A stretch of DNA of 63,681 bases, filler included, from Rhabdomonas costata (taxonomy: Eukaryota), in assembly GCA_019059605.1 (NCBI GenBank). It is 25 parts of 25 records of this genome, joined end to end, with 100 filler letters (N's around TTAATTAATTAA, not from the genome) between each part and the next. Parts side by side here need not be neighbours in the genome. Positions count along the whole stretch, not along the records: positions 17,877 to 20,328 come from JAHMHO010003342.1; positions 20,429 to 22,880 come from JAHMHO010003343.1; positions 22,981 to 25,432 come from JAHMHO010003344.1; 22 more parts are not named here. One strand, 5' to 3'. Of this stretch, positions 4,168 to 30,535 are shown in pieces (the stretch's first letter is position 1; each line of letters begins with the position of its first letter). The notes under the pieces were generated by a model. That model saw nothing but the letters and a program-made list of their open reading frames with translations, did no database searches and was not told where the DNA came from. Made by a program: the position numbers and the translations under genes.

Positions 4168-5669
4168 CACCACCACCGCTTCTCACCCTATATCGGAACT
4201 AGAAACGCACACAGCCCTCCAAATTCAAAAGAGGCTGAATTCAAAAACACGACAGAGCTGCCTCGCACAAGAGCAGCTGGAAGTGCAATTTGACGTCGAG
4301 TGATGAAAAGGGTCTGAAACAGTCAAGATCAGACCTGAAGCTCGAGGGAAAATGGAAGGGCCCAAAGTGCAAAACACCCGAAGGCGAAATACATGGAAGA
4401 ATGTCTGGGCCCCTACCGTTTTCGAAAAAGTGGATGCAGCGCGATAACATAGATTATCGATACGGTTACTTTTAGAAGAAAGCTGAGCGATTCAACGGCA
4501 TTCAACGGGACAGGTATGGCGATAGGAGTAGACAGCAGGAGGGCTAGAGCAGGGTCTGGGAATAACTAAAAAGTCGTCAACAGGCGGTAACAACCCAGAA
4601 TGCGGCTGCCTAAGGCCTAACATGTATGCTGGGCTCTGGCGGACCGCTACGAAAGCATGAGAAAATTAGTTCAACACATAAGGGCCGCCAAGGCCCGCCG
4701 GCAAACGAGCGGGGAGCGTCGCTGACGCTCCCATGAATGAGCGAAGGCACATCGCTATGCCGGCCGAGAGGCAGATCCGGCACAACAAGTATGGGCTGGG
4801 GGCAGGAATAAAGTCGAAACAGAAATGGAAGTTGAAGAGCAGCAATGCTGTGTTTTGTCCCAAAGATGCACAGACGGACGCAGTGGGATCTCGGAACGAA
4901 AAATAACCAGCTCGCCGAATATCTCTTCATACGTCCACGCAGCCAACCAAGCAACGCTTGATTAACGTGTCGAAAAAGTTCGACCTGCCGGAACCATACC
5001 AACCACANNNNNNNNNNNNNNNNNNNNNNNNNNNNNNNNNNNNNNNNNNNNTTAATTAATTAANNNNNNNNNNNNNNNNNNNNNNNNNNNNNNNNNNNNN
5101 NNNNNNNGTGTTGGGTGTGTGTGGGTTGTTGGGTAAGGGACCAATTAAGCGGCGGCAGAACAAGACAAATAAAGCAGCCACACGGCTCCACGGGGATGGC
5201 AAGCGATACCGTGAACAGGTGATAAATACCACGGTAACGATGGAAGAAGTGTAGTAATCGATTAAGAAGGTCTTTCAAACGAAGGATCAAAGCATCTAGC
5301 CTCCAGTGCGCACCCGACTTCCGACTCCAATGGGACCCCCTTCACGGGGGATCTACGTGTGCGCGGTGTGCGGTCGACTGCGCTGTGAAAGAGATGGCAG
5401 AAAAGACAATGTTTGATAGAATGGATTAGCAAAACCAATTTTCTCAAAAACATGTCTGTCAAACCTGCAGAGGTAAATTGGACGGGGGCAAGGGTTCGTG
5501 CGGCGGATAAAAAGCAGTGCTTGGTAGAATGGTGCTGCTGCGGGGGCAGACTGGATCGCGAGCGGGAATATGATGGTGTGTGAGGGAAGGTGGGGAGAGA
5601 AAAATGGGAAGAGGGTAATACAAAGCTCTGCCCGCCCTGGACGTTTTTCATCGACGCACACACATACAC

Positions 5670-7561
5670 ACCACGGCCTTATACATATCGACGTACAGCG
5701 GGTCGTTGAAGTGTTTCACCAGCGTGCCCCCGGGCGTGGTGTAAATCGTTGGGTGCCCCATCGGGGAGCCATACTCCTCGGCCCCCGCAAGGGCCTCGCT
5801 CCATTGGGGCTCCTCTAGTAAGGCAGGGGCCCGGGGCAGAGGCTTGCACCTTGTCCTGCGGTGGCAGGCAGGCACACGTGGGAGCGGGGGCGGAACTGGA
5901 TCTAGGCCATCCCTGACCAACCTTGCGGGGGGCTCGAAGAGATCTGGGGGCAGAAGCAGCGCTGGTTGCTCCAAGACAGCGGCCAGGGGCTTCTTGAACC
6001 GCAGCAAAGCGGTGGTGCAGAGTGGGGCCACGGCGCAAAGCACGGACCCCCCGAAGGGAAGGCGGGGGGTGGGCCAAGAAGAAAGCCTGCAGGGGCACTT
6101 CCCTGAAGGCATCCCTATCCGATCCACTCAAACAAATAAAGAACAAAAACAATCAGTTGTTGTCAGACTGGCGCTGCCGGTGTTCCACCGAACGTGAATT
6201 CCTCCTTTTTCTTTTGCAGCAAGACCTCAAAAAAAGGACTCCAAAAGAAACCTCTAGGGCTGGTGCCAAAAAAAAAATCGAAATTGAAAAACCAAGGCCC
6301 ACTCGGTTGCCAGTGAAAAGTACTCCACGGCTTTGCCCTTAGGTATGCTAAGCACCTTGGCTGAACACTTAGGCTACCTTAGAAGTCCAAAAAGTGTGTT
6401 TGTAATGCCGCAGGCCACAAAAACCTCAAGTGAACAATCTCAGATGCCATGCTGCTAGAGGCTGGAAAGCTCAGCTCAGGAGTATTACCATCCCACCAAA
6501 TAAACTTGTGCCAGGTCCTCCAGTCGAGCTCCGCTCCAGCTTCCGTCCCACGGTAGCCGATGTGGGAAGTCATCTAGCGACCTAAAGAAATGGTCCAACT
6601 CTCTTGACACCTGTTCTCCGGAGGCTGGCACAGGAGATAAGACGGACCCCCTCCGAAAAAAAACCCGATAAAAAGAAGGAATTCATCTGCTAACCAAAGC
6701 CGACAAACACTCAGCTAACGGATAAACAAAGAAACCAACAGACAAAGAACAAGGGGGGAGTCAATCAACGGAGGTTCACTGTAGTAGGAAGAGGTAGAGG
6801 AAGCTGATAATGGCATGGCTCTCTCCATTTGAGCTTGATTTCTCTCCTGCTTTGGACAGCGAACTGCTTTGGACAGCAAGGTGAATTCGGCACTAGTACT
6901 TAATGGTCAGCTAAGGTCGACGCCCAACCCACAAGACAAGAAAGGGGGAATTCCGATAGCACCGGGTATTAAGGCTGAAGTCGCATCCGATTTCATTTTG
7001 CCGCTCCTTTCATAGCTTAGGCGCCGACTGTTCCCCTGCAGCAGCAACTTCAGTTCACAATGCGAACAGCACATACTCAAACAAGCAGCAAGTGTACAGT
7101 AATCCAGACATGTTAAAAAGGCTATGAGACGCACACACACAACAGGAATGAAAACAGAAACATGAGATGGATGGCAACTCCCTGCGCACCCCCGGCCGAT
7201 GGAAGGTGGGCTGGATAACTCCTAGAGTGCCCACCATTACTGCCTACCCTTTAGGTAGGTCGTGTCCAGCTCCTCGATGCGGTCCTTGAGACGCTCCCTT
7301 CGCTGCCTCCGGAAGCGACTGCGGAAGCCATCGTCGGCGACCTAGAGAAAAATGGAAGAGATTGTTAGCCAGCCAGTGCTGGACCAGGGAGCGGGGCACG
7401 GGGAGGGGGCACAAGTACCCGCTGCACATCCATCACGTTGACATCCGAGAGGGTGCTGGCCTTCATCTGGGCAGCGGTGTTCAGCGACCACCACCCCGTG
7501 GAGCGGCCCACGTACAGCCCTGTCACCGCGACGCCCTCCAGGTACACCGCCGGGAACACCC
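5670..7561 (-). CDS. Hypothetical multi-exon protein fragment (exons 7561-7419 and 7341-7248; probable further exon(s) within ~6100-5670)
   Basis: GT-AG intron 7418-7342 joins ...SDVNVMDVQR to VADDGFRSRFRRQRRERLKDRIEELDTTYLK in phase 0, with GC3-rich codons. The GC-rich open frame at 5648-6127 looks coding. No family recognised and the downstream joins are unresolved. Confidence 0.45.
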
Positions 7562-13134: not shown

Positions 13135-14652
13135 ATGGCATCAGATGGAAAGCGGGAAGTGCTGGGGCATTACGAGCTGGGCAAGGCCCTTGGCAGCGGC
13201 TCCTTTGCCTCGGTGTGTGTATGGCATGCCGGCCCAAGGGCATCGGCCATTTTTAATTATTTTGGGAAGGGAACTGCCAGAAATCAGATTTCTCATATCA
13301 CAGCTCGTTGATATCTCCTTAGGAATCGTGAGGTTTTGGGTCTCGCATTGAGGTGGTGTATCTTCGACGAGCTTGTGCCTGTAGTGGCTGTTCTCGCTGT
13401 GACTTAGGTCCGAGAATGCACTGACCTGAACACCGGACTGAAGTGGGCGATCAAGATCCTGGATAAGAAGATGCTTGTGGACCAGAACATGGGGGTGCAG
13501 GTGCAGCGGGAGATCGCGGTGATGCTGAAGATGAAGCACCGCAACATCGTGGAGATGAAGGAGTGCTTCCAGACCTCGGACAAGGTGTACATCATCCTCG
13601 AGCTGGTTGACGGCGGCGAGCTGTTCGACCGGTGCGCTGCTTGCGTTTCGGACGTTTCGGACAACAGGGGTAAATACGGACGGATATGCTCCGTAATCCT
13701 GCCCGGAGTCCATGTGGACCTCAATAGCTCAGTGGTGCTTTGATATCCCAACCTTGACTCACATTGCCTTGGTGTCGGGGTTGGGAAGGGTGGGCGAGTG
13801 GCTGGATTTGCTAGTCTTCCAGAGGAAAAATAACGATCCACTGTATTATAGCCTATGTGGGGAAAACGGGCTAAAGGAGTTGCCCGCGAAGCGAAGAGGA
13901 TTGGAGGATTCACGCTCTTTTTCTTCAGGATCAAGGCCACGAAGAAGCTTGACGAGGACACCGCGCGGATGTACTTCCAGCAGCTCATCATGGGCCTCCA
14001 CTACTGCCACAAGCACAACATCGCTCATCGCGACTTGAAGCCAGAAAACCTTCTGCTGGTTCCTTCCCTCTCCTTGTGCCATGCTCGACCTCAAACCACC
14101 AATATGCCGGGTTTCGTTGGGCACTGGAAGATAACATCTGCTGGACAGTTGTCTGCCTTCCATGCTTTCATTGCCCCCCCCCCCAATGGCCCTGCCCATC
14201 TGGATTCTTTTTTGTGGTGCTGCTCAGAACAAGGACAACATTGTGAAGATCAGCGACTTTGGGCTGGCCAACACTCAGAGGGCGACGGACTCGGGGCGGG
14301 TGAGCGACTCCATGATGCTGAAGACGGTGTCTTCGCTTTGTCTTATTGGCGCCCCCCCCTCCCTCCCTCCAGCCCTTCCCGTCCTTTGGCAAAGCTTCTT
14401 TTTCGCTGAAAATCAACGAAGGAAATGAAAGCGATGTGATTCCAGTGGTGTCACTTGTGCATACACGCGTCCACCGTCACGCAACCCAACCTGAGCACAC
14501 GCCGTCTTTGTTATTATTTCCGTGTAGTTTAGAAAACCACTGCAAGGCTATGCGCAGGTGTTCTTCACAGAGCAGGTCCTCGATTGCTATTTTGATTCCT
14601 CCAATTTTACCCGTTTTTCTTGCTCAGGTTTGCGGAACGCCCAACTACGTTG
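13135..14652 (+). CDS. Ser/Thr protein kinase, CAMK group (SnRK/CIPK-like), 5' part, exons 13135-13212, 13408-13631, 13929-14058, 14228-14326, 14628-14652
   Basis: [30 protein letters not shown]...WAIKILDK...QREIAVM...HRNIV...[13 protein letters not shown]...[43 protein letters not shown]...[11 protein letters not shown]. Kinase subdomains I-VIII are present and all introns are GT-AG and in phase. Confidence 0.95.
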
Positions 14653-15728
14653 GTATGATTTCTGATTTCATTCCCGGTTCCCCCTCCCCCATCCACCACA
14701 CAGCTCATTTTGGCTACGGAAAGCAGCGATGAAATGCGGAGGTGTATGTGCCTGCTGAGAGAGTGGTGCGCTCGTTCTGTTGAATGGAAATGTTTATATT
14801 AAGGGAGTGGGAGGTTGGGCTGCAGATCGCTTCAAGGTGAGCGGTTCACAATTATCAGAGGATAAAAAAGAAGTATCAATTGGTACGCCACACTCGGTTT
14901 GGTTTGGTTTGGTTCGGTTGGGTTCATGATTCCATCCCTCTGGACGCTTGCATCTGGTCACCACAACAAAATAGAAAAGTCATGTGCCCTGTTGAGGGTT
15001 CAGTACCCATGGCCGCTTGCTCTCAGCTTTTCGCTATCTCTGTCCGCTCGTGCAGCGCGGCCAACTCAGGTCAGGAAATACACTAACGCCACCCATCTGA
15101 ATAGTAGCACATCCATTGAGACGATTTCGCCGACAGCGCAGGGAAGCTATAAAAGCCCGGTGCCGCTCGGTGAAAATTCTGAAAAATCATACGCATAGGT
15201 GACAAACGATGGAGGACCAGGNNNNNNNNNNNNNNNNNNNNNNNNNNNNNNNNNNNNNNNNNNNNTTAATTAATTAANNNNNNNNNNNNNNNNNNNNNNN
15301 NNNNNNNNNNNNNNNNNNNNNGGTTTGTGGTCTAAAAGCCATGCTTATGGCAGCTTGTGAATATCTAACCCTCAGAACCCACCAGGGTACGAAAATGCCC
15401 ACACAAAACCACCTCAGAATGGAGTTTTCACAAATTAACACTGAAGGGAGGGCAACATAGCTGCGTCACTGCTGTGGTGACGCCGAGGGAAGAAACCCAC
15501 CTTTCTCCGTTTCTCTGTATCCCTGTCCCTGCTGTGTGTGAGCTTCTCTATTTGACGTCGCTGCCGCATCTGTGAGCAGGGTATACTGTTGGAGAAGGTC
15601 ATCCCCGCTGACCTCACCCAAAGTATTCGTAACATAAGCACAACAATCCGTCGGAATTTAGAGTTGTGTCATGAGAGCGCGCCAAAATGGTCACCACTCA
15701 CGATGGGACCAAGACACACATCTCTGGT

Positions 15729-17570
15729 TCATCGAAACGGCATTCTTGAAACCGCTTCCCAAAAATCTGAATAGTCGCGAAGGGACTCAATCTTCGAAAA
15801 GGCATTGGTACACTTCGCCATGCTCACCGGACTCATGTGCTCCAGCACCGAAATGGCTGCATTGGCCAAAGCTTTCCAAAGCCTCTGGTTACCCCAGAGA
15901 AGGTGAACTCTCGAAAAGCCATCCACACACACGACGAAGTCTTTCGGATGCATCTCATCCGCCGTGGAGAAAACTGAATTTGCCAAAGCTCTCCAGAGAG
16001 CTACGTTATCCAAGAGTAAAATGACCCTGGAGTAGCCCCCCACCAGCTGGGCAATGTCACGAGAGTTTACTTGACTCAGAGTCGAATGAGTGGCACTGCT
16101 CAAGGCATCCCAAAGATCCTCATTTACACTTAGCAGTGGTATCTTGGAAAAGCTATTGACACAGTTTGCCAGGCTGTGCGGTTCCATCTGACCCACCAGG
16201 GATAGGGAAGCTTCGGCCAAAGTTGTCCACAAAACTTCGTCATCCTCAAGAAAACGGTTCCTGCAAAAGCTTCTCGCGCAGTTGGAGAGGTCCTGCGGAC
16301 GCATTACCGGTGCCATCTCAACCGTTGCCTGGGCAAGAGCTTCCCACAGCCTCTGAAGGAAATAAGCGTTGGAAAACCCCATCACGCAGCTGACAACATC
16401 AACAATGTCCACCTCTTGCCCACTTTGCAGCATCGAAATAGAACACTGGGCCATCGATTCCCAGAGGACTTCGTACTCAGCAAAACATGACGCACGCGAG
16501 AACCCGAGCACGGACTCGGATATACCTCGGGGGGACATCTGCCTCAACGTTGAAAGTGTTGCCTCCGAAAGGGAATACCAAAGATTTCCGTTGCTGTAAA
16601 GAAGACCAACCTTTGAAAACCCACTGACACAGTTAGCGATTCCCCTGGGTGGCATGCTTTCTAACGCAGGTACCACAGCTTTCGCCAAGGCTCCCCACAG
16701 GTCCTGGTGGTCACTGAGAAGTAGGACTTTGGAGAAACCATTGCCACAGGTTGCCAAATCAATGAAGTTCATCTGCCGTGTCATTATCGTTGCAGAGTTT
16801 GCCATTGCTTCCCAAAGCTTCTCATTTTCGAGAAGAAACCAGACCTTGGAAAGGCCATTGACTGAATTCGAAAGATGCTGTGGGCTCATTTGCTCTACAA
16901 GAGAAACCGCTGCTTCGGACAGTTTCTCCCAGAGAGCAGCATCGTTCCGCAGGGCGTTCACCTTCGAAAACCCATTTACGCAGTTGGCCACATGCTGCGG
17001 ACTCCATGTCGAGAGGCATCCGGCTGTCTTTGACAGCGCTTCCCACAGGGATTGATCACCGAGAAGAAAACGCACCTTTGAAAATCCAAGAACACAATTC
17101 GCCAGAAAATGACTGTCGAATGATGGTGATTTTGAGACAGCCACCTCAGCGAGGGCCTCCCATAGCTTTTGGTCAGTAAGGCTCCGCTTTAGCTTCGAAA
17201 AGTTGTTGACGCTCCGAGCCACATCTTCTGCATCGAAGCTCGCTGCTGCAGCAATCACGGCCTCCACCATGTGGGCCTGGAAACCTAGGTTGCGCGCACT
17301 CGCAGGCTGGGAAATCAGCGAATGAATTTTTTGGGTGTGGCGCTTATTGTACATACTATCGCTCTCCAGCGGGTCTTGCCTTGCATCCCGGGCGTACCAG
17401 CGTGCACGAAAACGGTAACTTGGAACTTGCACGTGGCCCATCGAATTATTGCATAAAACCCTCCGAGCGACTGCGCACATCGGGAGTACATATTTGTTCG
17501 AGATACGACGAACTCCAAAGCGGCGTTGATTCAACAGAGCGTCCTGGAGTCCTCGTCTCGCAGATTGCAT
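15729..17570 (-). CDS. 613-aa intronless helical-repeat protein, 13 tandem ~39-aa OPR/HPR-like repeats, Arg-rich N-terminus (possible organelle targeting)
   Basis: Uninterrupted ORF starting at a true ATG. Repeat consensus PxxxANCVxGFSKVxxLxx(D/N)xxLWxALAxAxxxxxxxM runs from residue ~114 to the C-terminus. The N-terminal ~60 aa are rich in Arg and poor in acidic residues. Confidence 0.85.
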   Translation of the reverse strand: MQSARRGLQDALLNQRRFGVRRISNKYVLPMCAVARRVLCNNSMGHVQVPSYRFRARWYARDARQDPLESDSMYNKRHTQKIHSLISQPASARNLGFQAHMVEAVIAAAASFDAEDVARSVNNFSKLKRSLTDQKLWEALAEVAVSKSPSFDSHFLANCVLGFSKVRFLLGDQSLWEALSKTAGCLSTWSPQHVANCVNGFSKVNALRNDAALWEKLSEAAVSLVEQMSPQHLSNSVNGLSKVWFLLENEKLWEAMANSATIMTRQMNFIDLATCGNGFSKVLLLSDHQDLWGALAKAVVPALESMPPRGIANCVSGFSKVGLLYSNGNLWYSLSEATLSTLRQMSPRGISESVLGFSRASCFAEYEVLWESMAQCSISMLQSGQEVDIVDVVSCVMGFSNAYFLQRLWEALAQATVEMAPVMRPQDLSNCARSFCRNRFLEDDEVLWTTLAEASLSLVGQMEPHSLANCVNSFSKIPLLSVNEDLWDALSSATHSTLSQVNSRDIAQLVGGYSRVILLLDNVALWRALANSVFSTADEMHPKDFVVCVDGFSRVHLLWGNQRLWKALANAAISVLEHMSPVSMAKCTNAFSKIESLRDYSDFWEAVSRMPFR

Positions 17571-17876
17571 TACTCAGGACAAAAGCTCACTCTGAAAGAG
17601 AATCAGGCCGGAGGTCGCGAGGGCACAACCACACCGAGGCACTTCTCAGCATAAATCAGAATGCGTGGGGCACTGCACTCTTACGAGCCTCAGTGGTCTA
17701 CTTCATGTCGAGGAACCACCAATCGCAGGTATCAAACACACAAATCCTTCAACATGAACTCCCCAGGAATCCCCGGNNNNNNNNNNNNNNNNNNNNNNNN
17801 NNNNNNNNNNNNNNNNNNNNTTAATTAATTAANNNNNNNNNNNNNNNNNNNNNNNNNNNNNNNNNNNNNNNNNNNN

Positions 17877-18570: not shown

Positions 18571-20429
18571 CTGTCGCACCCACCCACCCACACAAACAGT
18601 CACACATCCACAAGCGCTTCCCTATATACATGCAGACACACAGACTAACCAACCCACAGTCGATCACTTGCCTGCCTCGAAGTTAAGGCATCCGTGCGAG
18701 CAACAGAGGGTTGCGAACAGTCTCTTGATTTCCCTGCTCGGCAGTGTTACGACTCATGAGCCAAATAATTTTAATGAATAGAGAAATTCATTTTCAAACG
18801 GAGACCAAAATTCGTTTAAACGGAGGCCAATTAAAAGAAGACCAAATTCAAACTAATTACCACGGACGATTTAACTTGGCAGCCGAGAAGAGGAACACAA
18901 GCGTCCAAGTGTTTTCCCATTGGCGAAGATGGAGGAAATTAAGCCCATCTATGTGCCTCGTAATCTGTGGACGACTGAACCACTTTGAGAAAGATTGAGA
19001 AAGATTTCACTCTTTTGGATAGCTGAACACGCGGCTTGATGCCGCAACAGTGCGACAAAGGGGAAATTCAAAGGCCCCAACTTGTGCTCTTTCCACATCC
19101 AATTCACAGTAATGTGGATTTTAGCATGCCCCCATGATCCGCATCTAAAAGCCACACATCAAAAGGTCTAAAGGAGAACGAAAAGTACTCGGTTGAAGAA
19201 CCTTGCGGTGCTTGGACGCTGCCAAGGATTTCCGGCGAGTTGTCGGCCCGTGGGAGGACCCACTAAGAGAGGCCTGTGAGATCTCCTCTGCACAAACCAC
19301 ATTCTCACCGAGTCCAAACCCCAGAGGAGTCAAAGAAAAAACCCTCGTCTTAAAAAGAACAGGCCACGACGGCCACCAACGAACAAAAAAAAGCATTCCG
19401 AAAGCGTTGAACAACCTTATGGAAAACACTTCCTTCCGTCAAAAACAAGAAACCTTTTGGATCTGGAGGTGGGGCAGCCCGATCGGTGCTCTTCACTACC
19501 CGCTTGCGAGTATGCTGAGAAGAAAAGACACACAGAACGTGCAAAAGGCATAACTCTGGTGAAAGTCTTTTCCGCCTCCTTTCGACCATGGAGAGCCGGG
19601 GTGGTAAAAGAGAGTAAGGAAACAATTTAAGAATGAGGACCGCTCTGGGTTGCAGTGCTATTGACTCAGTGTAACGAAGCAAATCTACAAAACGACAGAT
19701 GCTCTTTTGTGCACCAGCAAGCGGAGACGGTCGCAATAGTGCTTAATAGTGCTCCTACGAACCTTGTCTTACAATTGACGAGCTTTTGTAGACCGCAGGT
19801 GGCTGATTGTGCCCTGTTGCCGATATGGGTGTAGTTGTGTACCATTGCATTCCCAGACAAGGGATCACGTCCAAGACGCAGCTGGGACTTCAAGTTGAAC
19901 AGCTCAGCTTGAGTTCGCACAAACGTCATCACCTGAGCAAAGGGTCACAAAGACATTAACAAGCTCAAGAAAGACATGAACAACCTCTTGTAATAAAACA
20001 AGAGCACGGATGTCCTCTGGGTCCACCCAAGGTTTCCTCTATAATGCCCATAATTTGTTGTGTCTTCAGTTTCCTCCCTGAGAGGCTCTCATCGAGTTTC
20101 CTATGCAAACTTACTTTCCGTTTCTTCGATATGCGCGGAAAGGCAGTTCCTCTCTGAAGGTTCTCTGTGTCCCGAATATCTGGTTCACCCCCCCACACAC
20201 ACACACAGGATACTCTCCCAAGTTGCAACAAGCCTCGAAATTCCCTCGAATTGTTTTTGCACTCGCTTTGTTCAAGAGCCCTGCAAGGAGCGCGCGCGCG
20301 CACACACACACACACATACAACACACACNNNNNNNNNNNNNNNNNNNNNNNNNNNNNNNNNNNNNNNNNNNNTTAATTAATTAANNNNNNNNNNNNNNNN
20401 NNNNNNNNNNNNNNNNNNNNNNNNNNNNA

Positions 20430-21635
20430 AGAGATGTAAATGAAATATTTACATTTATTAAAGATAAAAATTTAATTAGTGTAACATATAATTCAGTTGA
20501 TATTCTTATACAAATCATTGACAAATTAAAAGACATTTTTATAATCTTTGATGAATTTCATAATTTATCATACACCAATATAAATGATAAAACAAATGAA
20601 ATGTATAAACTTATAAATAATAATACATATAACAAATTATATTTATCAGCGACACCTATTTTCAATATTAAATATGATAAAATATATAAATATTTGTGGA
20701 CGGATGCGATTAAAAATAAATATATCTGTGATTTTAAATTAATTATATTGCAACAAGATGAAAACTTTAATCAATTACTTAATGAATTTCAAAATAGTAA
20801 TAAACTTGCAGTAAAAGTTTATAATTTATTAAAAAATATGTTATATTATGGAAGTAGGAAATGTATTTGTTATTTATTATCAATTGAACAAGCAGAAGAA
20901 TTTCAAAAAATTACAATTTGGATGGCAGAATTCCTAAATATAAATTTGTTATCATGGATAATAACATATAATACATCATTTTTAAACCGACAGAAATATA
21001 TGAATGAATTTAAAGAATCAAAAGAATTGTCATTATTAATCAATGTACACATACTAGATGAAGGAATAAATATTCCAGAATGTGATTCAGTATATATCAC
21101 AAAACCAAATGACAATATAATAAATATTGTACAACGAATGAGTCGAGCAAATAGAATAACATCAAATAAAAATTTATGTTATATTTATATGTGGTGTTCA
21201 GTAAATAAAATGAAAATGATATTGGATTATATATCAGACAAGACACAAAATATAATAGAAAATAAAATTATAATTAATAAAATAAATAACAATAATATAG
21301 AACAGAATATAGATAAAACACAAACTATAACAAAAAATGATGACAATAGTATAACTAATAAAATAAAGAATGACGAACAAAATATTGAAATACAAAATGT
21401 AATAGGAAATACAAATATATCAGAAATACCGTTACAAATAATGTGTGATAATACTAAAGAACAAAACATAAATAAAACTGATTTTAATTGTAAATTTTGT
21501 GGTAAAAATTTTACTGGAAAAAATTATATGGTTCGTCATATAAACATATACTGTAAATATGCAAAAAATAATATTATAAAAGAATCATCTAATAAATTAA
21601 TAAAAGTACAAGATGGACTACAAAATAATTTATGA
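20430..21635 (+). CDS. Superfamily II (DExH, ResIII-like) helicase with C-terminal zinc finger, 5' truncated
   Basis: The frame is open from the contig start, upstream of the listed ATG: ...ISVTYNS...IFIIFDEFHNL (motif II), LYLSATP (III), LLINVHILDEGINIPECDSVYI (V), IVQRMSRANR (VI), then an Asn-rich linker and CKFCGKNFTGKNYMVRHINIYC. Confidence 0.9.
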   Translation, partial: RDVNEIFTFIKDKNLISVTYNSVDILIQIIDKLKDIFIIFDEFHNLSYTNINDKTNEMYKLINNNTYNKLYLSATPIFNIKYDKIYKYLWTDAIKNKYICDFKLIILQQDENFNQLLNEFQNSNKLAVKVYNLLKNMLYYGSRKCICYLLSIEQAEEFQKITIWMAEFLNINLLSWIITYNTSFLNRQKYMNEFKESKELSLLINVHILDEGINIPECDSVYITKPNDNIINIVQRMSRANRITSNKNLCYIYMWCSVNKMKMILDYISDKTQNIIENKIIINKINNNNIEQNIDKTQTITKNDDNSITNKIKNDEQNIEIQNVIGNTNISEIPLQIMCDNTKEQNINKTDFNCKFCGKNFTGKNYMVRHINIYCKYAKNNIIKESSNKLIKVQDGLQNNL

Positions 21636-21652
21636 ACCACAATAATAAGATA

Positions 21653-21679
21653 TTAAAAATATATTTTATATATTTTTAA
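21653..21679. terminator. Perfect palindrome (12-bp stem, 3-nt loop) between convergent viral-type genes; candidate mimivirus-type 3'-end signal
   Basis: TTAAAAATATAT-ttt-ATATATTTTTAA, 17 nt after the helicase stop codon. Confidence 0.6.
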
Positions 21680-21764
21680 CATATAGTCTTTTATTTTTTG
21701 TTTTTTCCTATTTCTATAGCCAAATTATAAATTTTCAATATTGGTAATTTTAATAAATTGAAAT

Positions 21765-22118
21765 TCAGGCTATTATTATTTTTTTTAATTTATCTGCGAT
21801 ATTATTTAATAATTTTTCATATCGAATATCTTTTTTTTCAAGTAATTTAATCGATTCATTAAATTTTTCGAGTAATTTAATCAATTCATCGAATTTATCA
21901 GGTTCATTTTGTTTTTTGCATGCAGTTTTCATATGTCTTGTTAAATTATCACGTCTTGAGAAATTTTTCCCACATTTTGGACATATATTTTGTTGTGTAT
22001 TTTTTATTTTTTGTTTTTTCTTAATTATGACACATGGTGTCTTTCTATTTATATGAGTTTTATAATTTGAGATTTTATCAAATATTTTTTCACATCTTGG
22101 ACATGTATATGTAACCAT
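21765..22118 (-). CDS. Small double C2HC/C2H2-type zinc-finger protein of giant-virus type (117 aa)
   Basis: MVTYTCPRCEKIFDKISNYKTHINRKTPC...CPKCGKNFSRRDNLTRHMKTAC followed by a short coiled-coil. The N-terminal YxCxxC...HxNRKxPC pattern is one I associate with Mimiviridae gene families. Confidence 0.8.
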   Translation of the reverse strand: MVTYTCPRCEKIFDKISNYKTHINRKTPCVIIKKKQKIKNTQQNICPKCGKNFSRRDNLTRHMKTACKKQNEPDKFDELIKLLEKFNESIKLLEKKDIRYEKLLNNIADKLKKIIIA

Positions 22119-22172
22119 TTTTAAATAAAATATATTTGATATGTCTATGATATATATACATATGTTTAAATG

Positions 22173-22203
22173 AATTTAAAATTTTTTGTAAAAATTTTAA
22201 ATT
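22173..22203. terminator. Perfect palindrome (14-bp stem, 3-nt loop); candidate mimivirus-type 3'-end/polyadenylation hairpin
   Basis: AATTTAAAATTTTT-tgt-AAAAATTTTAAATT, starting 8 nt downstream of the stop of the minus-strand ORF 22685-22212. Confidence 0.7.
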
Positions 22204-22211
22204 TATTATTT

Positions 22212-22685
22212 TTAATTTTTCTTTTTATTATCATTGTTATTATCATCATTAATGATATTGTCATTGATATTTAATTTAACAGGCATAGAAATACCTGTGT
22301 CAAGTGTTCGTTTAATGTTATTGTGAATAATCGGACACAAATCAGCAGGTACTACAATCGGTGTACTTTTATCAAATGTATTTGTGCATAAACTAGATTT
22401 AGGACAATTTGGGCTATATTTAAATTGATCACATTTGGAATTTGGTTGTGTAATATTACGTAATTCACTGTCATAATCAACTAATTCGAATGGTTTCCAG
22501 AATCCATATTTATCACGTTGACAAGATTTGTTATTCACAAATTTACCACCATATAATTGATATTGTAATGGTGATGTACTTTCATATAATTCTTTCTGAT
22601 ATGCACATTTATCATATATTAATCTGTTTGAGAAACCAAACGGAACACTGCTATTTAAATCAGGTTCGTTTTCAATTTCAGTCAT
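22212..22685 (-). CDS. Conserved giant-virus-type Cys-containing hypothetical protein (157 aa)
   Basis: Motifs SNRLIYDKCAY..L.ESTSP..Y.L and LVDYDSELRNITQPNSKC...KY.P.C resemble a multi-paralog Imitervirales family (YDxCxY / VDxESEL). Assignment is from memory and needs an HMM check. Confidence 0.7.
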   Translation of the reverse strand: MTEIENEPDLNSSVPFGFSNRLIYDKCAYQKELYESTSPLQYQLYGGKFVNNKSCQRDKYGFWKPFELVDYDSELRNITQPNSKCDQFKYSPNCPKSSLCTNTFDKSTPIVVPADLCPIIHNNIKRTLDTGISMPVKLNINDNIINDDNNNDNKKKN

Positions 22686-22761
22686 AATATAATATATGTA
22701 ACATTTTTTATTTAGAAAAAATAACTATATTAAAATTAAAAAAAAAATATATTTTATATTT

Positions 22762-22860
22762 TTAATATTTTTTCATCTTATTCTTGTTTTTTTCCAAATC
22801 CACACAAATTCAGATTTTTTTTATTAAGTAATCGTGTAGATTGTGGTGGGTTCATAATGA
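22762..22860 (-). CDS. 3' end of a further AT-rich ORF truncated by the contig end
   Basis: Open frame ...IMNPPQSTRLLNKKNLNLCGFGKNKNKMKKY* with stop at 22764-22762, overlapped by a 9-bp-stem palindrome at 22743-22763. Confidence 0.4.
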
Positions 22861-24478
22861 CATTATTAACCCACCACACCNNNNNNNNNNNNNNNNNNNN
22901 NNNNNNNNNNNNNNNNNNNNNNNNTTAATTAATTAANNNNNNNNNNNNNNNNNNNNNNNNNNNNNNNNNNNNNNNNNNNNTTTTGGGGGGAAGTGACTCA
23001 TTCCGCACGGCCGAAGAGGACCAAGAGTCCTGCCGGCAGTGCGGAATGAGTCACTTCCTCCCAAAGCCTGTTACCTTGGCGTCGTTGCGCTCCATGCTGG
23101 TGGAGGCCTCTTTATTGTGATGCGTGCATTGATGGAGGAGTTTGTGTTGGTTGTCTTGCCTTGATTGGCTTTTGGTCCTTGCATCTCTGTTTTCCAGTTC
23201 GCTCTCGTATAGCTGCGGCTCTCTTGTTGGAATCGTTCTCTTTGTGAGTTGTGCGCGTTTATGCCCCACCAGGGTGAGACGAATTTCTTGGCTTTTCCCG
23301 CTTGGTCACCCGAGGGCTTGCTTCAAACGTCACGGAGGATATCTTTTGTTACCTGCTCCATTCGTGCGCGCACGCGTGAAAACACTACTTTCAGTGGTTA
23401 CATTGAAGTAAGGGCATAGTCCAGTCATGACGACTCGTCCAGTCTCTCAATGGACTTGCCTGCTTCTGAGTTTCTGGACACCAACAAACAAGTATACGCC
23501 ATTAAAGTGCCCCGCTTTCACTAAAATAAAAAGCTTGCTGCTCAAAGTGGATTGAAAAAGGGCGGATTGGACCACAGTTGCCTACCACTTTCTGTTCTGC
23601 TTCTTGATTACCCACTTGCAACAAACCTTGTCGGTGCCTTATGTTACGTGTACCGTGACGTCATACTTTTGTTCTTGAAGTGCTTTTTCGAAAGCAGCTT
23701 CCTTTGTGAAGCTGCTCTGCCGGAACATCGCAGTCCCAAGCTCACTTGTTGAGCGGGGGAACACGCATTAGAGTGGAAGACAACCAGAGTTCTGTGCTTT
23801 GCTTCTGTATGAAATCTTCTTTCTATTGCGGTGGTTGTTCACTTGACGCTGCATTGGGTGATGATTGCGTACCGCACCTTGCATGAAGCAAAGTGCGTGC
23901 ATGTTGGTGTTTTCATTTTTCTCTCTCGGTGCTAATTTGCCCGCAATATTCTGAAATTTTTAACAGCAAACATCATGCCTGTGATCTGACACACGAAATA
24001 CTGGGTCCAAATTGAATTTAGAGTTCCTCTTAGAGTTCGTCTTCTGATCTGTGTTGAACTTAAGGAGACTTATATGAAAGACCGGCTGTCGATTTCATCT
24101 CCTGCCACGATTTGTGCAGACAGACGCGACAGTGTGGGGAAACCTGAGACAAAGCGGGTTGTGAGGTCTTTGTAGGAAAGATGGCACGCTCCGGATGTGT
24201 GAAAATCTGGAGTGCCATTTAAAGTTTGCCACAATCCGAAACAGAATTCCGTGCACTTTGTGTCCGCCAGTGGGCTCCCCCACCTGGCTGTACGCCTTCA
24301 CCGGCTTATCCCGAGACATGCACTATTAATGATCGCCTTTCAATGTCCTTTCGACCGGGTTTCGTGTGCTTTCAGCTTTGATCGCCGACCCATCAGCGAT
24401 TACCTTTTCAACTTATTTCGTTCCCCACCGGGTTCGCTTTTTGTTTCACGCGCGCGTCTGCCGTGCTTCATTTGTGTC

Positions 24479-27587: not shown

Positions 27588-28436
27588 GTTCGCCGATGCC
27601 AACTATCTCTCCTCCTCGCCGGATGGGTTCTGGTCACAATCTCCGTTTAGCGTTTTCTGGCAACGAAGTGGAATGACTTTTTGCAAAGTGAGAGAAAATG
27701 GTTCTTCAGGGTTTGCTTTCAGACCCAGTTTCTCTGGACAGATCGCAAGCCACACTACACCGGGCAGGCATTTCTGTCCTTGTCGCCGAGTTCGTATGTC
27801 CGACTTCATTTCTCATTTCGTCTCGTTTTGTTCATGAGTTCTGTTGACCAGGTCAGTGTTGCGGACAAAGAATAAGGAAGACACATGTAGTTATGGAATG
27901 TATAGAATCTGATGCTCTCATGTGTTGTTTGGTGATTTCTGCGTCGCACACACTGACCTGGTCAACAGAACTCAACAACAAAANNNNNNNNNNNNNNNNN
28001 NNNNNNNNNNNNNNNNNNNNNNNNNNNTTAATTAATTAANNNNNNNNNNNNNNNNNNNNNNNNNNNNNNNNNNNNNNNNNNNNTTTGTTGTTTTTTTGAA
28101 ATTTGTTTTCGATTTTCCTCAGGTCAGAACGCGGTTGCCTTAAATGAGTTAACTCGAAAAAGGCAGCTCTTGAAGCCATATGAAGTCAAGTCACTTTGCG
28201 CTTAAGCCGGACCTGTTGCCCCCCCCCCCATCTCCACCTCCCTCTCTGTATACCTGGAAGTTGAGAGGGAAAAGACGACCCACAAAATCGCGACTCTCAG
28301 GGGAAGAACAGGCCGGGGCATTCACTTCACAGTGTGCAGGCTCACTGCTGAATATGGGAAGGAAGGGTAGACGTTGAGTGGGCGCTTTCGGCGCTTTCAC
28401 TTGCTGACATAGTGGTCGTTGTGTATGCTGCTTCAG

Positions 28437-30535
28437 GGTACTTCACCGCTGCGAATGCCACGCTGGTTACCGCGGACCTGCCAGTGCGCTACGGCAGCCC
28501 GGTGACCTACTCCTTCGCGTTTTCAGTGAGTGGCAATAGTGTGGGGCAGGAGACGATGACCATTCCCCTTGCTGGGCTGAGGCCAGGCACTACCGTTTAC
28601 TGGCACCCCACTGAAAGCAACCTTACCGCTGTAATCACCAACTGCACCCTTCCCCAGGGCTGCGCGTGCGTCGCCGGAGCGAGCGACGTCACCTGCTCCT
28701 TGAGCCCGTACACGTTCACCACCGGTGGGAGTTTGTTCCTGTTCTTCTGGCCCTACCGTGACCCTGTGGGGCAGTGGGAGGGTAACGTCACCTTCGGAGC
28801 CTTCTCCATGGTTGGAATCACTTCCACCCTGCCCAGCTTCCCGCTGTGGGGCACGCTCTCCATCCTGGCCACACCCCAGACCTACCCTGCGGTCAACCTG
28901 CCCTACAGCATGATCGCCATAATGGTCAGAGTGGGCGCAGACCTGGACTCTGCTGGTGGGGAGAACATCACGATTCCTTCCGCCCTGATTACGCAGAACG
29001 CGACTGCCCCAGAGAGCTCCGTTCAGTTCACCCTAGGATACAACTGCAGTGCCGGGCCGATCCCCAGCTCGGGGATGAGCTCGTGCGGGCTTCCCGTAAA
29101 TGGTTCGTACAGCTGTCCCCTCGGAAGGGGCGCCATCCCTGCGCCCTATCCCCAGGTCTTCTCCATGGTGAGCACGGCACACAACCTTGTGTGTCTGTTC
29201 TTCCATCCTGTCTCCACCGTGGTGTGCCCGCACACCGTTGCGCTGAACGTGAGTGGGACGTCCTACTTTTCCGTGAACTCCACTGCCAACCTGAACCTCA
29301 CCGCGACATTGACCCCAGTGAGTCTGGAATCCATTGTTCCCATCCGCAGCCATGTCCCGGCGTGGCAGACCGTGAATCTCACCTTCGGACTGACGGTTAG
29401 CGGGACCTCACCTTTTGGAGAGAGCGCCACCATCAGCGGGCAGAACATCTCCCAACTGGGCATGAGCGTCGGGGGAAGCGCTTCTCAGCAGTGCGCCATC
29501 CTGAGTTCTGCAATTTGGTCCTGCCCACTGGCATCAGACGTGCACTGGACGTACCCCAACACCACTGCGGTGCTAAGCTTGCTGCCCAGCTTGACCTATA
29601 TTGGGCCCTGGTCGGGCTCGGCTGTGTTCCTCGCGGGCTGCACTCTCCCCGGGGATCCTGACTTCAACTTTACGGTGTTTGCTCAGATGACGATGGCGGT
29701 GCAGACTTACCCCGTGTATCCCGTACCCCAGTCTGTGGTGACCACTCAGGTCAACCTCACTCTGACTGCTGCACCCGTGCGTGACGTCTTTCTGATCGTG
29801 TACAATGCCCACTTTTTTTCTGACAACTCGACGAACTTCACGGCGATCCCGGGATCGATGTCGTGGTCTCTGGGCGCAAATGCATCCGGCGATCCCTTGA
29901 CGCGTTGCTGGGAAGTTTCGCAAAGCGCTGTGGGCTACGCTCAGATTTGCAACATCACCGTTAATCCCAGTGGAAGTCGGTTCCTCTTCCCCAACCAACT
30001 CACTTCGATATACATACGGTTTCTACCCAACACTCTGGTCACCATGGGGCAATGGAACTTTAACGTCACGTACAACAGCACGTATTTCGATACGACTTCC
30101 CTGGCAACGTTTCTCATCCCCATGGCCAACACCACCTTCTCGTACATCAGCAGCTTGGAATACATCTCCCGGACTGTGGCCACGAGCCACCTCAGCTTGA
30201 CCGCGACGCATGACTCCCGTTTGGGTGGGGAGACGCTGTATATCAGCGCTGATCGAGTTGATATGACTGGAACCTTCGGGTTCACCCCACTGTGGAACCT
30301 GGACACTGACAATATTGGCACTGCCCAGCCATGTAGCCTGATTTCGAGTTTGGACCTCTGGAGTTGTGCCCTGGGCACTCCTCTTTTTAACGATACCAAC
30401 AACCGTCATGTGGACGTCTTTCTGTACTGGATTCCAGTCACCACCACTGTGGGTCCTCTTAGTCTGCCTCTGAACACTCCCCTGTTCTACTTCAACGCTA
30501 CGCTCTTTCTTAACCAAACTTTGACACCACCAACC
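28437..30535 (+). CDS. Large exon (>=699 codons) of a probable secreted/surface glycoprotein with ~5 tandem 125-150-aa beta-rich units
   Basis: cttcAG acceptor ending 28436 and an open frame to the contig end. Thr/Ser/Val/Pro-rich, almost no Lys, many N-x-S/T sequons. Recurring motifs G.E..TI, C...(W/Y)SC.L and L...P....G.W. Confidence 0.8.

Follow-up and report, generated by a model that had tools for sequence, protein, structure and literature searches.

Within a stretch of 63,681 bases from the Rhabdomonas costata assembly GCA_019059605.1, referred to here as the window, one AT-rich contig at positions 20429-22880 is very probably a 2.45-kb genome fragment of an undescribed giant virus (Nucleocytoviricota), most similar to the Imitervirales and carrying a helicase nearest to those of Klosneuvirinae-type viruses. 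The window consists of 25 contigs, each 2446-2455 bp long, which are joined by artificial spacers (N44 + TTAATTAATTAA + N44), and all positions are counted along the whole window. Three genes are predicted on the contig, which would represent the 3' two-thirds of a DExH helicase, a small two-finger DNA-binding protein, and a conserved Cys-rich protein.

20429-22880, no strand: AT-rich contig, very probably a giant-virus genome fragment; 2452 bp, 20.9% GC, 83% coding
20430-21635, plus strand: superfamily 2 (SF2) helicase, C-terminal part of 401 amino acids (aa), open to the contig start, stop codon at 21633-21635
21765-22118, minus strand: 117-aa protein; two zinc fingers of the C2H2/C2HC type and a helical tail rich in Lys and Glu; zf-C2H2 at 3.7e-12 in two stretches
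22212-22685, minus strand: 157-aa Cys-rich protein; family pattern YDxCAY ... VDxESEL ... CDQFKYxPxC ... CPI

An earlier reading of this DNA, made from the sequence alone and referred to here as the sequence-only reading, had described one extremely AT-rich, gene-dense, and intronless contig among 24 GC-balanced ones, a description borne out by measurement. The GC content of the contig is 0.209, whereas that of the other 24 averages 0.518 (standard deviation 0.021, range 0.484-0.565), amounting to 20.9% against 48-57% and a z value of -14.5. The tetranucleotide distance to the centroid of the other contigs is 0.105, compared with at most 0.025 for any other contig, and no second contig of foreign composition is present among the 25. 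The three genes occupy 2031 of the 2452 bases (83%), and their frames, measured from stop to stop, are 401, 170, and 136 codons long, whereas the three longest frames in 1000 mononucleotide shuffles reached at most 123, 100, and 81 codons, respectively. The GC content at codon positions 1, 2, and 3 is 0.26/0.20/0.13, 0.28/0.26/0.13, and 0.35/0.32/0.18 in the three genes, with intergenic values of 0.09-0.20. Judging from frames that remain intact at 21% GC, from the drop in GC from the first to the third codon position, and from hairpins after two of the three stop codons, the genes look functional. The same reading had named a DExH SF2 helicase with a finger, a two-finger protein, and a YDxCAY/VDxxSEL-type protein, all of which were recovered through Pfam and motif analysis. 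It had also regarded all frames as intact, which is correct in that no frame is broken, but the helicase is cut by the contig start, and approximately 220 residues are missing.

The evidence for a viral origin is provided first by the relatives of the 157-aa protein. The contig's protein carries YDKCAY and VDYDSEL, motifs that are invariant or nearly so across the family, and 41 of 49 candidate sequences are relatives at E <= 0.001, the best being 57-63% identical. One of them, labelled 'uncultured virus', lies on a contig of 649,991 bp. A pattern scan of IMG/VR using the family alignment returned 483 stretches, 450 of which were confirmed by tblastn, on contigs of up to 719 kb. From these 450, 80 loci (L003-L082) were kept, and the contig name contains GVMAG in 32 of the 80. 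The three nearest ESM-Atlas clusters (score 0.95-0.96) are composed of 95-100% viruses, most commonly Nucleocytoviricota. Among prokaryotes, surveyed with one genome per species across 185,579 species, none of the 29 pattern matches is a relative. Pfam gives no match to the 157-aa protein or to any of 23 family members; the protein by itself has no PDB match either, and a profile of these 23 sequences finds none among PDB sequences at E <= 10. Judged by these searches, the family is widespread, unannotated, and apparently specific to giant viruses.

The neighbourhood of the family gene in related viruses follows a recognizable block, consisting of a P9_TM-like minor capsid gene, PNKP, a serpin, two unknown genes, the 157-aa family gene, UBC, a longer paralogue, and a gene for a protein of approximately 955 aa that has no Pfam match. 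The last of these adjoins a 157-aa family gene in 45 of its 52 occurrences, and the P9_TM-like gene, present in 34 of the 80 loci, is situated one to six genes away from the family gene.

The promoter motifs of this block were interpreted with reference to the excerpted text of PMC5294985, a review in which AAAATTGA is given as the early motif of mimivirus and CroV, and in which the late motif assigned to CroV is TCTA flanked by A/T-rich sequence. In the 80 loci, AAAATTGA occurs no more than 60 nt upstream of 54 of 546 other open reading frames (ORFs), in contrast to none of 152 family genes; among the neighbours, it precedes UBC in 13 of 26 cases, TBP in 6 of 13, and PNKP in 6 of 13. TCTA, by comparison, is found upstream of 79 of the 152 family genes, whereas shuffled sequences gave a mean of 32 and a maximum of 46, and 67 of its 90 occurrences are positioned at -25 to -16. 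The motif also precedes 15 of 31 P9_TM-like genes, marking these and the genes for the protein of approximately 955 aa less than it marks the family genes. The two motifs partition cleanly within the block, TCTA belonging to the 157-aa family and AAAATTGA to the neighbouring UBC, TBP, and PNKP genes. The corresponding region on the contig carries one copy of the late-type motif:

22686-22765, minus strand: upstream region of the 157-aa gene, with a CroV-type late-promoter-like motif (TCTA in A/T-rich surroundings, 31 nt before the ATG)

Because of the P9-like neighbourhood in relatives and the late-type TCTA motif, the analysis suggests that the 157-aa protein may be a late, disulfide-rich protein of the virion or of morphogenesis. 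In terms of mechanism, a gene that lies in a P9-like capsid-gene block in related viruses and carries a late-type TCTA would probably be expressed late and yield a virion-associated protein.

The helicase constitutes the second source of evidence. Its frame runs open from the contig's first base, and the ATG at 20601 is internal. As estimated from the 678-aa protein of locus L100, the contig start cuts off approximately 220 N-terminal residues, Walker A among them. Pfam recognizes Helicase_C (3.1e-11) and, as a partial DEAD match (6.3e-05), the last part of the DEAD/ResIII domain. When the protein is aligned with 21 relatives, motif II (DEFH, of the DExH type), motif III (SATP), and motif VI (QRMSRANR) form invariant columns, and the relatives display GMGKT at Walker A (motif I). 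In total, 308 relatives were collected, on contigs of up to 186 kb; the best of them, at 53-58% identity and approximately 650 aa in length, are viral-bin proteins. Full-length relatives are approximately 620-700 aa long, and the core is preceded at the N-terminus by either Mrr_cat_2 (PF13156) or Bro-N (PF02498). An alignment-based scan of IMG/VR detected 21 helicase loci, 11 of which have GVMAG in their names; a scan of the same database with the single helicase sequence detected no relative. The sequence-only reading had named best matches to bacterial, organellar, or AT-rich eukaryotic proteins as a refutation; the 157-aa family has no relative among the prokaryotic species surveyed, and the best relatives of the helicase are the viral-bin proteins.

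The structural comparison of the helicase points to the same group of viruses. An AF2 model reaches a pLDDT of 70-92 over residues 1-286, with the C-terminal RecA-like domain folded. When this model was searched against BFVD, the first match was Catovirus CTV1 (E 2.1e-25, 37% identity) and the second Terrestrivirus (E 9.3e-20, 30%), both of which we take to be mimivirids; the other matches are at most 24% identical, among them the helicase of African swine fever virus (ASFV) at 17%. A fold search against solved structures gave generic SF2 two-RecA helicases with 9-21% identity among the matches listed, and the sequence search against solved proteins gave weak matches to archaeal XPB/RAD25 (E 0.0016-0.003). 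The XPB/Rad25-type and restriction-type SF2 helicases (ResIII + Helicase_C) share with the contig's protein the DExH motif II and the QRxxRxxR motif VI. In contrast to the XPB/Rad25 type, the contig's helicase adds a C-terminal zinc finger and its relatives an N-terminal Mrr_cat_2 or Bro-N domain. By domain content, the helicase is assigned to a giant-virus family in which a nuclease or DNA-binding domain is combined with an SF2 core, and it would presumably function in replication, repair, or transcription.

Downstream of the helicase core, approximately 60 low-complexity residues are followed by a C-x2-C-x12-H-x5-C finger near 21483-21548, which scores 0.0057 for zf-C2H2, below the Pfam cut-off, and shares 15 of 35 residues (43% identity, E 7e-07) with the 117-aa protein's second finger. 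A C-terminal finger of this kind (region 21381-21632 on the contig) is found in 4 of 120 relatives examined (P0058, P0060, P0062, and P0145), and in the L100 protein (4341-6377) the segment after the core is larger, different, and free of fingers. The contig's helicase would thus have a terminal zinc finger where relatives such as the L100 protein have a Bro-N/KilA-like DNA-binding domain. The C-terminal module of this helicase family accordingly appears, from such comparisons, to vary between members.

The viral records that hold relatives of the 157-aa gene or the helicase extend the evidence beyond the contig itself. In all five of those searched (G001-G005), Capsid_NCLDV exceeds the Pfam cut-off, with two to five matches each. 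MutS_V occurs in ORFs of 976-995 aa in three of the five, namely all three large ones (357-672 kb), such long MutS proteins presumably being a mimivirid marker. The 113 viral loci fetched range in GC content from 0.187 to 0.374, with a median of 0.252. The proposal of a Mimiviridae-like giant virus in the sequence-only reading is supported by capsid genes in five of five relatives' records, by the Catovirus and Terrestrivirus helicase matches, by microsynteny, and by the promoter motifs of relatives.

The microsynteny concerns UViG 3300042350_004242 (IMG/VR, 51.6 kb; loci L035 and L100), in which a helicase, one gene, and a 157-aa homologue follow one another in the order and with the spacing seen on the contig, the two homologues being 50% and 46% identical to the contig's helicase and 157-aa protein, respectively. 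Its GC content is 0.187-0.208, and it contains two Capsid_NCLDV matches. The arrangement differs in that its 157-aa homologue lies on the strand of the helicase, whereas the two are on opposite strands on the contig; in that its middle gene encodes an unrelated 309-aa protein rather than a zinc-finger protein; and in that the C-terminal domain of its helicase is unlike the contig's.

Among named viruses, the contig most resembles the Klosneuvirinae-type Mimiviridae (Catovirus CTV1 and Terrestrivirus), with which it shares very low GC, dense coding, and the lack of introns. To these features its relatives add several capsid paralogues, a long MutS, and the early-type motif AAAATTGA. The contig's proteins, however, are only 30-37% identical to those of named viruses, as against 53-63% to those of unnamed metagenomic viruses. 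In comparison with mimivirus, the late-type motif in the contig's relatives is the CroV-type TCTA and not the mimivirus type. Since the best matches anywhere are only 57-63% identical, with 63% as the ceiling among 5.8 billion database proteins, the contig's virus would represent a new lineage at roughly genus-to-family distance, in agreement with the claim of the sequence-only reading that the virus is undescribed. Identities of no more than 63% to known proteins are the normal state of giant-virus diversity.

Several observations weigh against this identification or its details. None of the three ORFs of the 2.45-kb contig is a hallmark gene of nucleocytoplasmic large DNA viruses (capsid, PolB, A32, or VLTF3). 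The placement in the Imitervirales, although the best-supported one, derives from one helicase, features of relatives, and a marker known from general background rather than from a hallmark-gene tree. In the two closest of the searched records with a 157-aa relative, no homologue of the helicase core was found and zinc-finger matches reached only E ~4e-4, which means that the three genes do not always occur together. The 117-aa protein gave 4007 matches among 1.84 billion representatives, mostly generic poly-zinc-finger proteins, which say nothing on origin. The AF2 model of the 157-aa protein, built from 23 sequences, has a pLDDT of 48 and is unusable, and for this reason it is the neighbourhood and the promoter motif that carry the proposed virion role. 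Copies of TCTA in the relatives concentrate at -25 to -16, whereas the contig's single copy is situated at -31; by chance, a single copy is expected in approximately 21% of AT-rich regions of 60 bases, making the motif weak when taken by itself. Additionally, AAAATTGA occurs nowhere on the contig, which has only two 5' intergenic regions.

A non-viral origin, with the contig deriving from a cellular genome of high AT content, an organelle, or a plasmid (of bacterial or mitochondrial kind, or from an AT-rich eukaryote), is very improbable and largely refuted: SF2 helicases and C2H2 fingers are universal and the best matches of the zinc-finger protein are generic multi-finger proteins, but the 157-aa family has no relative in Pfam, in PDB, or among the 185,579 prokaryotic species and resides on viral contigs that bear capsid genes and reach 719 kb, the helicase has its best relatives, 53-58% identical and of characteristic domain architecture, among viral-bin proteins, and an Rfam scan of the whole window yielded no match to tRNA, rRNA, or other families.

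With the contig read as giant-virus DNA, what has to be weighed is its source. The DNA was part of the sample from which the eukaryotic assembly was made, and giant-virus contigs as well as endogenous elements are a well-known and common find in protist assemblies. A free or infecting virus of the assembled organism is the source to which we incline, at somewhat less than an even chance; a recent endogenous element and a virus of a co-occurring organism are each given a lesser share, the same for both.

The contig might belong to a giant endogenous viral element (GEVE) that has integrated into the assembled eukaryote's nuclear genome, rather than to a free virus, which we consider possible on a tentative basis. 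GEVEs are widespread in protists, and those of Euglena gracilis have 25-35% GC in a genome of approximately 51% GC according to the portions of PMC12455990 drawn on here; the other contigs of the window average 51.8%, a value close to that of Euglena gracilis yet common to many eukaryotes. The contig is also as short as the host contigs, a length that may be more in keeping with coverage as low as the host's, or with breakage at repeats, than with an infection of high titre. On the other hand, neither end of the 2.45-kb contig shows a virus-host junction or host-type sequence, a result with which integration is still compatible; both ends are AT-rich and viral in type, the left one lying inside the helicase gene and the right one being a palindrome. 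At 21% GC, a composition in which stop codons readily appear, none of the three frames is broken, whereas the published Euglena elements are described as eroded in the same portions of PMC12455990; moreover, 20.9% GC is below the range of those elements, and the helicase is Catovirus-like rather than asfarvirus-like. The intact genes argue against an old, eroded insertion, without separating a free virus, a recent insertion, and the virus of another organism.

The last of these, according to which the virus belongs to a different member of the culture or sample (prey, a contaminant amoeba or flagellate, or environmental particles) and its link to the assembled eukaryote is accidental, is likewise a possibility to which we give limited credence. 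It is favoured by the occurrence of one short contig of foreign composition among 25, by the missing host junction, and by the abundance of relatives in environmental metagenomes; the only point on the other side is that no further contig of foreign composition is present among the 25. In a more specific form of the preferred giant-virus reading, regarded as unlikely, the contig would be a first glimpse of a mimivirus-like virus (Imitervirales) that is active in the assembled protist or was integrated there very recently, the lineage being sampled so poorly that its long proteins have hardly any relatives in databases.

Two systems from Euglenozoa provide a frame for these considerations. In the portions consulted of Jivaji et al. 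(2025, PMC12455990), eight GEVEs of Euglena gracilis are reported, assigned to the Asfuvirales, 86-311 kb in length, with 25-35% GC, eroded, and including SFII helicases, in a genome of approximately 51% GC. The statement of the sequence-only reading that no characterised euglenid giant virus exists is consequently out of date, since these elements were published in 2025. The contig is comparable to them, as far as that text describes them, in being low-GC giant-virus DNA amid an assembly of approximately 51% GC and in encoding an SFII helicase; it differs in its GC content of 20.9%, its intact genes, and its viral order. An assignment to the Asfuvirales by analogy with Euglena gracilis was ruled out by the 20.9% GC and by helicase identities of 17% to ASFV against 37% to Catovirus. 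In the same portions of PMC12455990, Bodo saltans virus (Imitervirales) is named as the only isolated giant virus of Discoba. It had served the sequence-only reading as a precedent, belongs to the same viral order as the contig, as far as this can be judged, and is not among the 50 best BFVD matches of the helicase. Its host is a kinetoplastid, a group that to our knowledge almost entirely lacks spliceosomal introns, whereas the other contigs of the window carry introns. Full-text literature searches on euglenids and Euglenozoa found no report linking the Imitervirales to a euglenid.

Giant-virus fragments in protist assemblies are a main route to new virus-host pairs and endogenous viral elements, and the contig indicates DNA of a divergent mimivirus-like lineage in the sample. 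A 2.45-kb fragment with neither a hallmark gene nor a host link is routine by itself. If the rest of the low-GC fraction were recovered and tied to the host, a host lineage would be added for the Imitervirales. Were the specific form of the reading true and the host a euglenid, this would be the first system of Imitervirales and a euglenid. It would differ from the elements of Euglena gracilis, which are eroded and belong to the Asfuvirales (PMC12455990, in the portions cited above), and, together with Bodo saltans virus, would bring the giant virus lineages linked to Euglenozoa to only two.

The fingers of the 117-aa protein, of the C-x2-C-x12-H-x3-6-H/C type, exceed the Pfam zf-C2H2 cut-off, and the protein is likely a DNA-binding factor. 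On the basis of their similarity, its zinc-finger units and that of the helicase look like paralogous DNA-binding modules.

The inverted repeats recognized on the contig include two that follow stop codons and two at its ends.

21650-21682, no strand: AT-rich hairpin between the convergent genes, 15 nt past the stop codon of the helicase; 15-nt arms, 93% complementary
22169-22207, no strand: hairpin directly downstream of the stop of the 157-aa gene; 18-nt arms, 94% complementary
20429-20459: left terminal palindrome, 13-nt arms
22842-22878, no strand: right terminal palindrome, GC-richer, 18-nt arms; RNA fold -20.6 kcal/mol, z = -3.6, 0 of 200 shuffles as stable

The hairpin at 21650-21682 (RNA fold z = -2.4; 4 of 200 shuffles as stable) is a possible transcript-end signal, and that at 22169-22207 is more extreme (z = -3.7; 0 of 200 shuffles as stable); no stable hairpin follows the stop of the zinc-finger gene (z = +0.6). 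Such hairpins after stop codons recall the 'hairpin rule' for transcript ends that Byrne and colleagues reportedly described in mimivirus in 2009. The right terminal palindrome may mark the transcript end of the next gene or the point at which the assembly broke; assembly graphs often break at palindromes of this kind.

The remaining contigs are eukaryotic, as indicated by GT-AG introns in a kinase gene, a WD40 exon, and a DUF5672 frame, which were the only Pfam families found in seven host frames. The label 'probably euglenozoan' that the sequence-only reading gave to these contigs is neither supported nor contradicted by them, and the link it drew between virus and host finds no support on the 2.45-kb contig.

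13927-14651, plus strand: protein-kinase gene with three exons, GTPNY motif, on the contig at 12769-15221
61234-61863, plus strand: DUF5672 frame (6.4e-12), on the contig at 61234-63681 (54% GC)

The two introns of the kinase gene, approximately 170 and 360 bp long, have GT...AG ends and pyrimidine tracts. The description of the other contigs as mostly spliced in the sequence-only reading holds for this gene, the one on which it was checked, the word 'mostly' extending beyond it. Most other long host frames look non-coding. A 728-aa frame (28352-30535, plus strand, contig 28084-30535) is open to the 3' end of its contig and rich in N-x-S/T sites, with no Pfam family and no Atlas relative at a score of at least 0.85. 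A 614-aa frame (15732-17573, minus strand, contig 15322-17776) is composed of repeats of approximately 37 aa (..NCVNGFSKV..LWEALA..). A search of 5.8 billion proteins gave it only two relatives (35% and 31% identity), for which precomputed annotation lists the Pfam families PF26188 and PF26172; one of the two also matches DUF1601 below the threshold.

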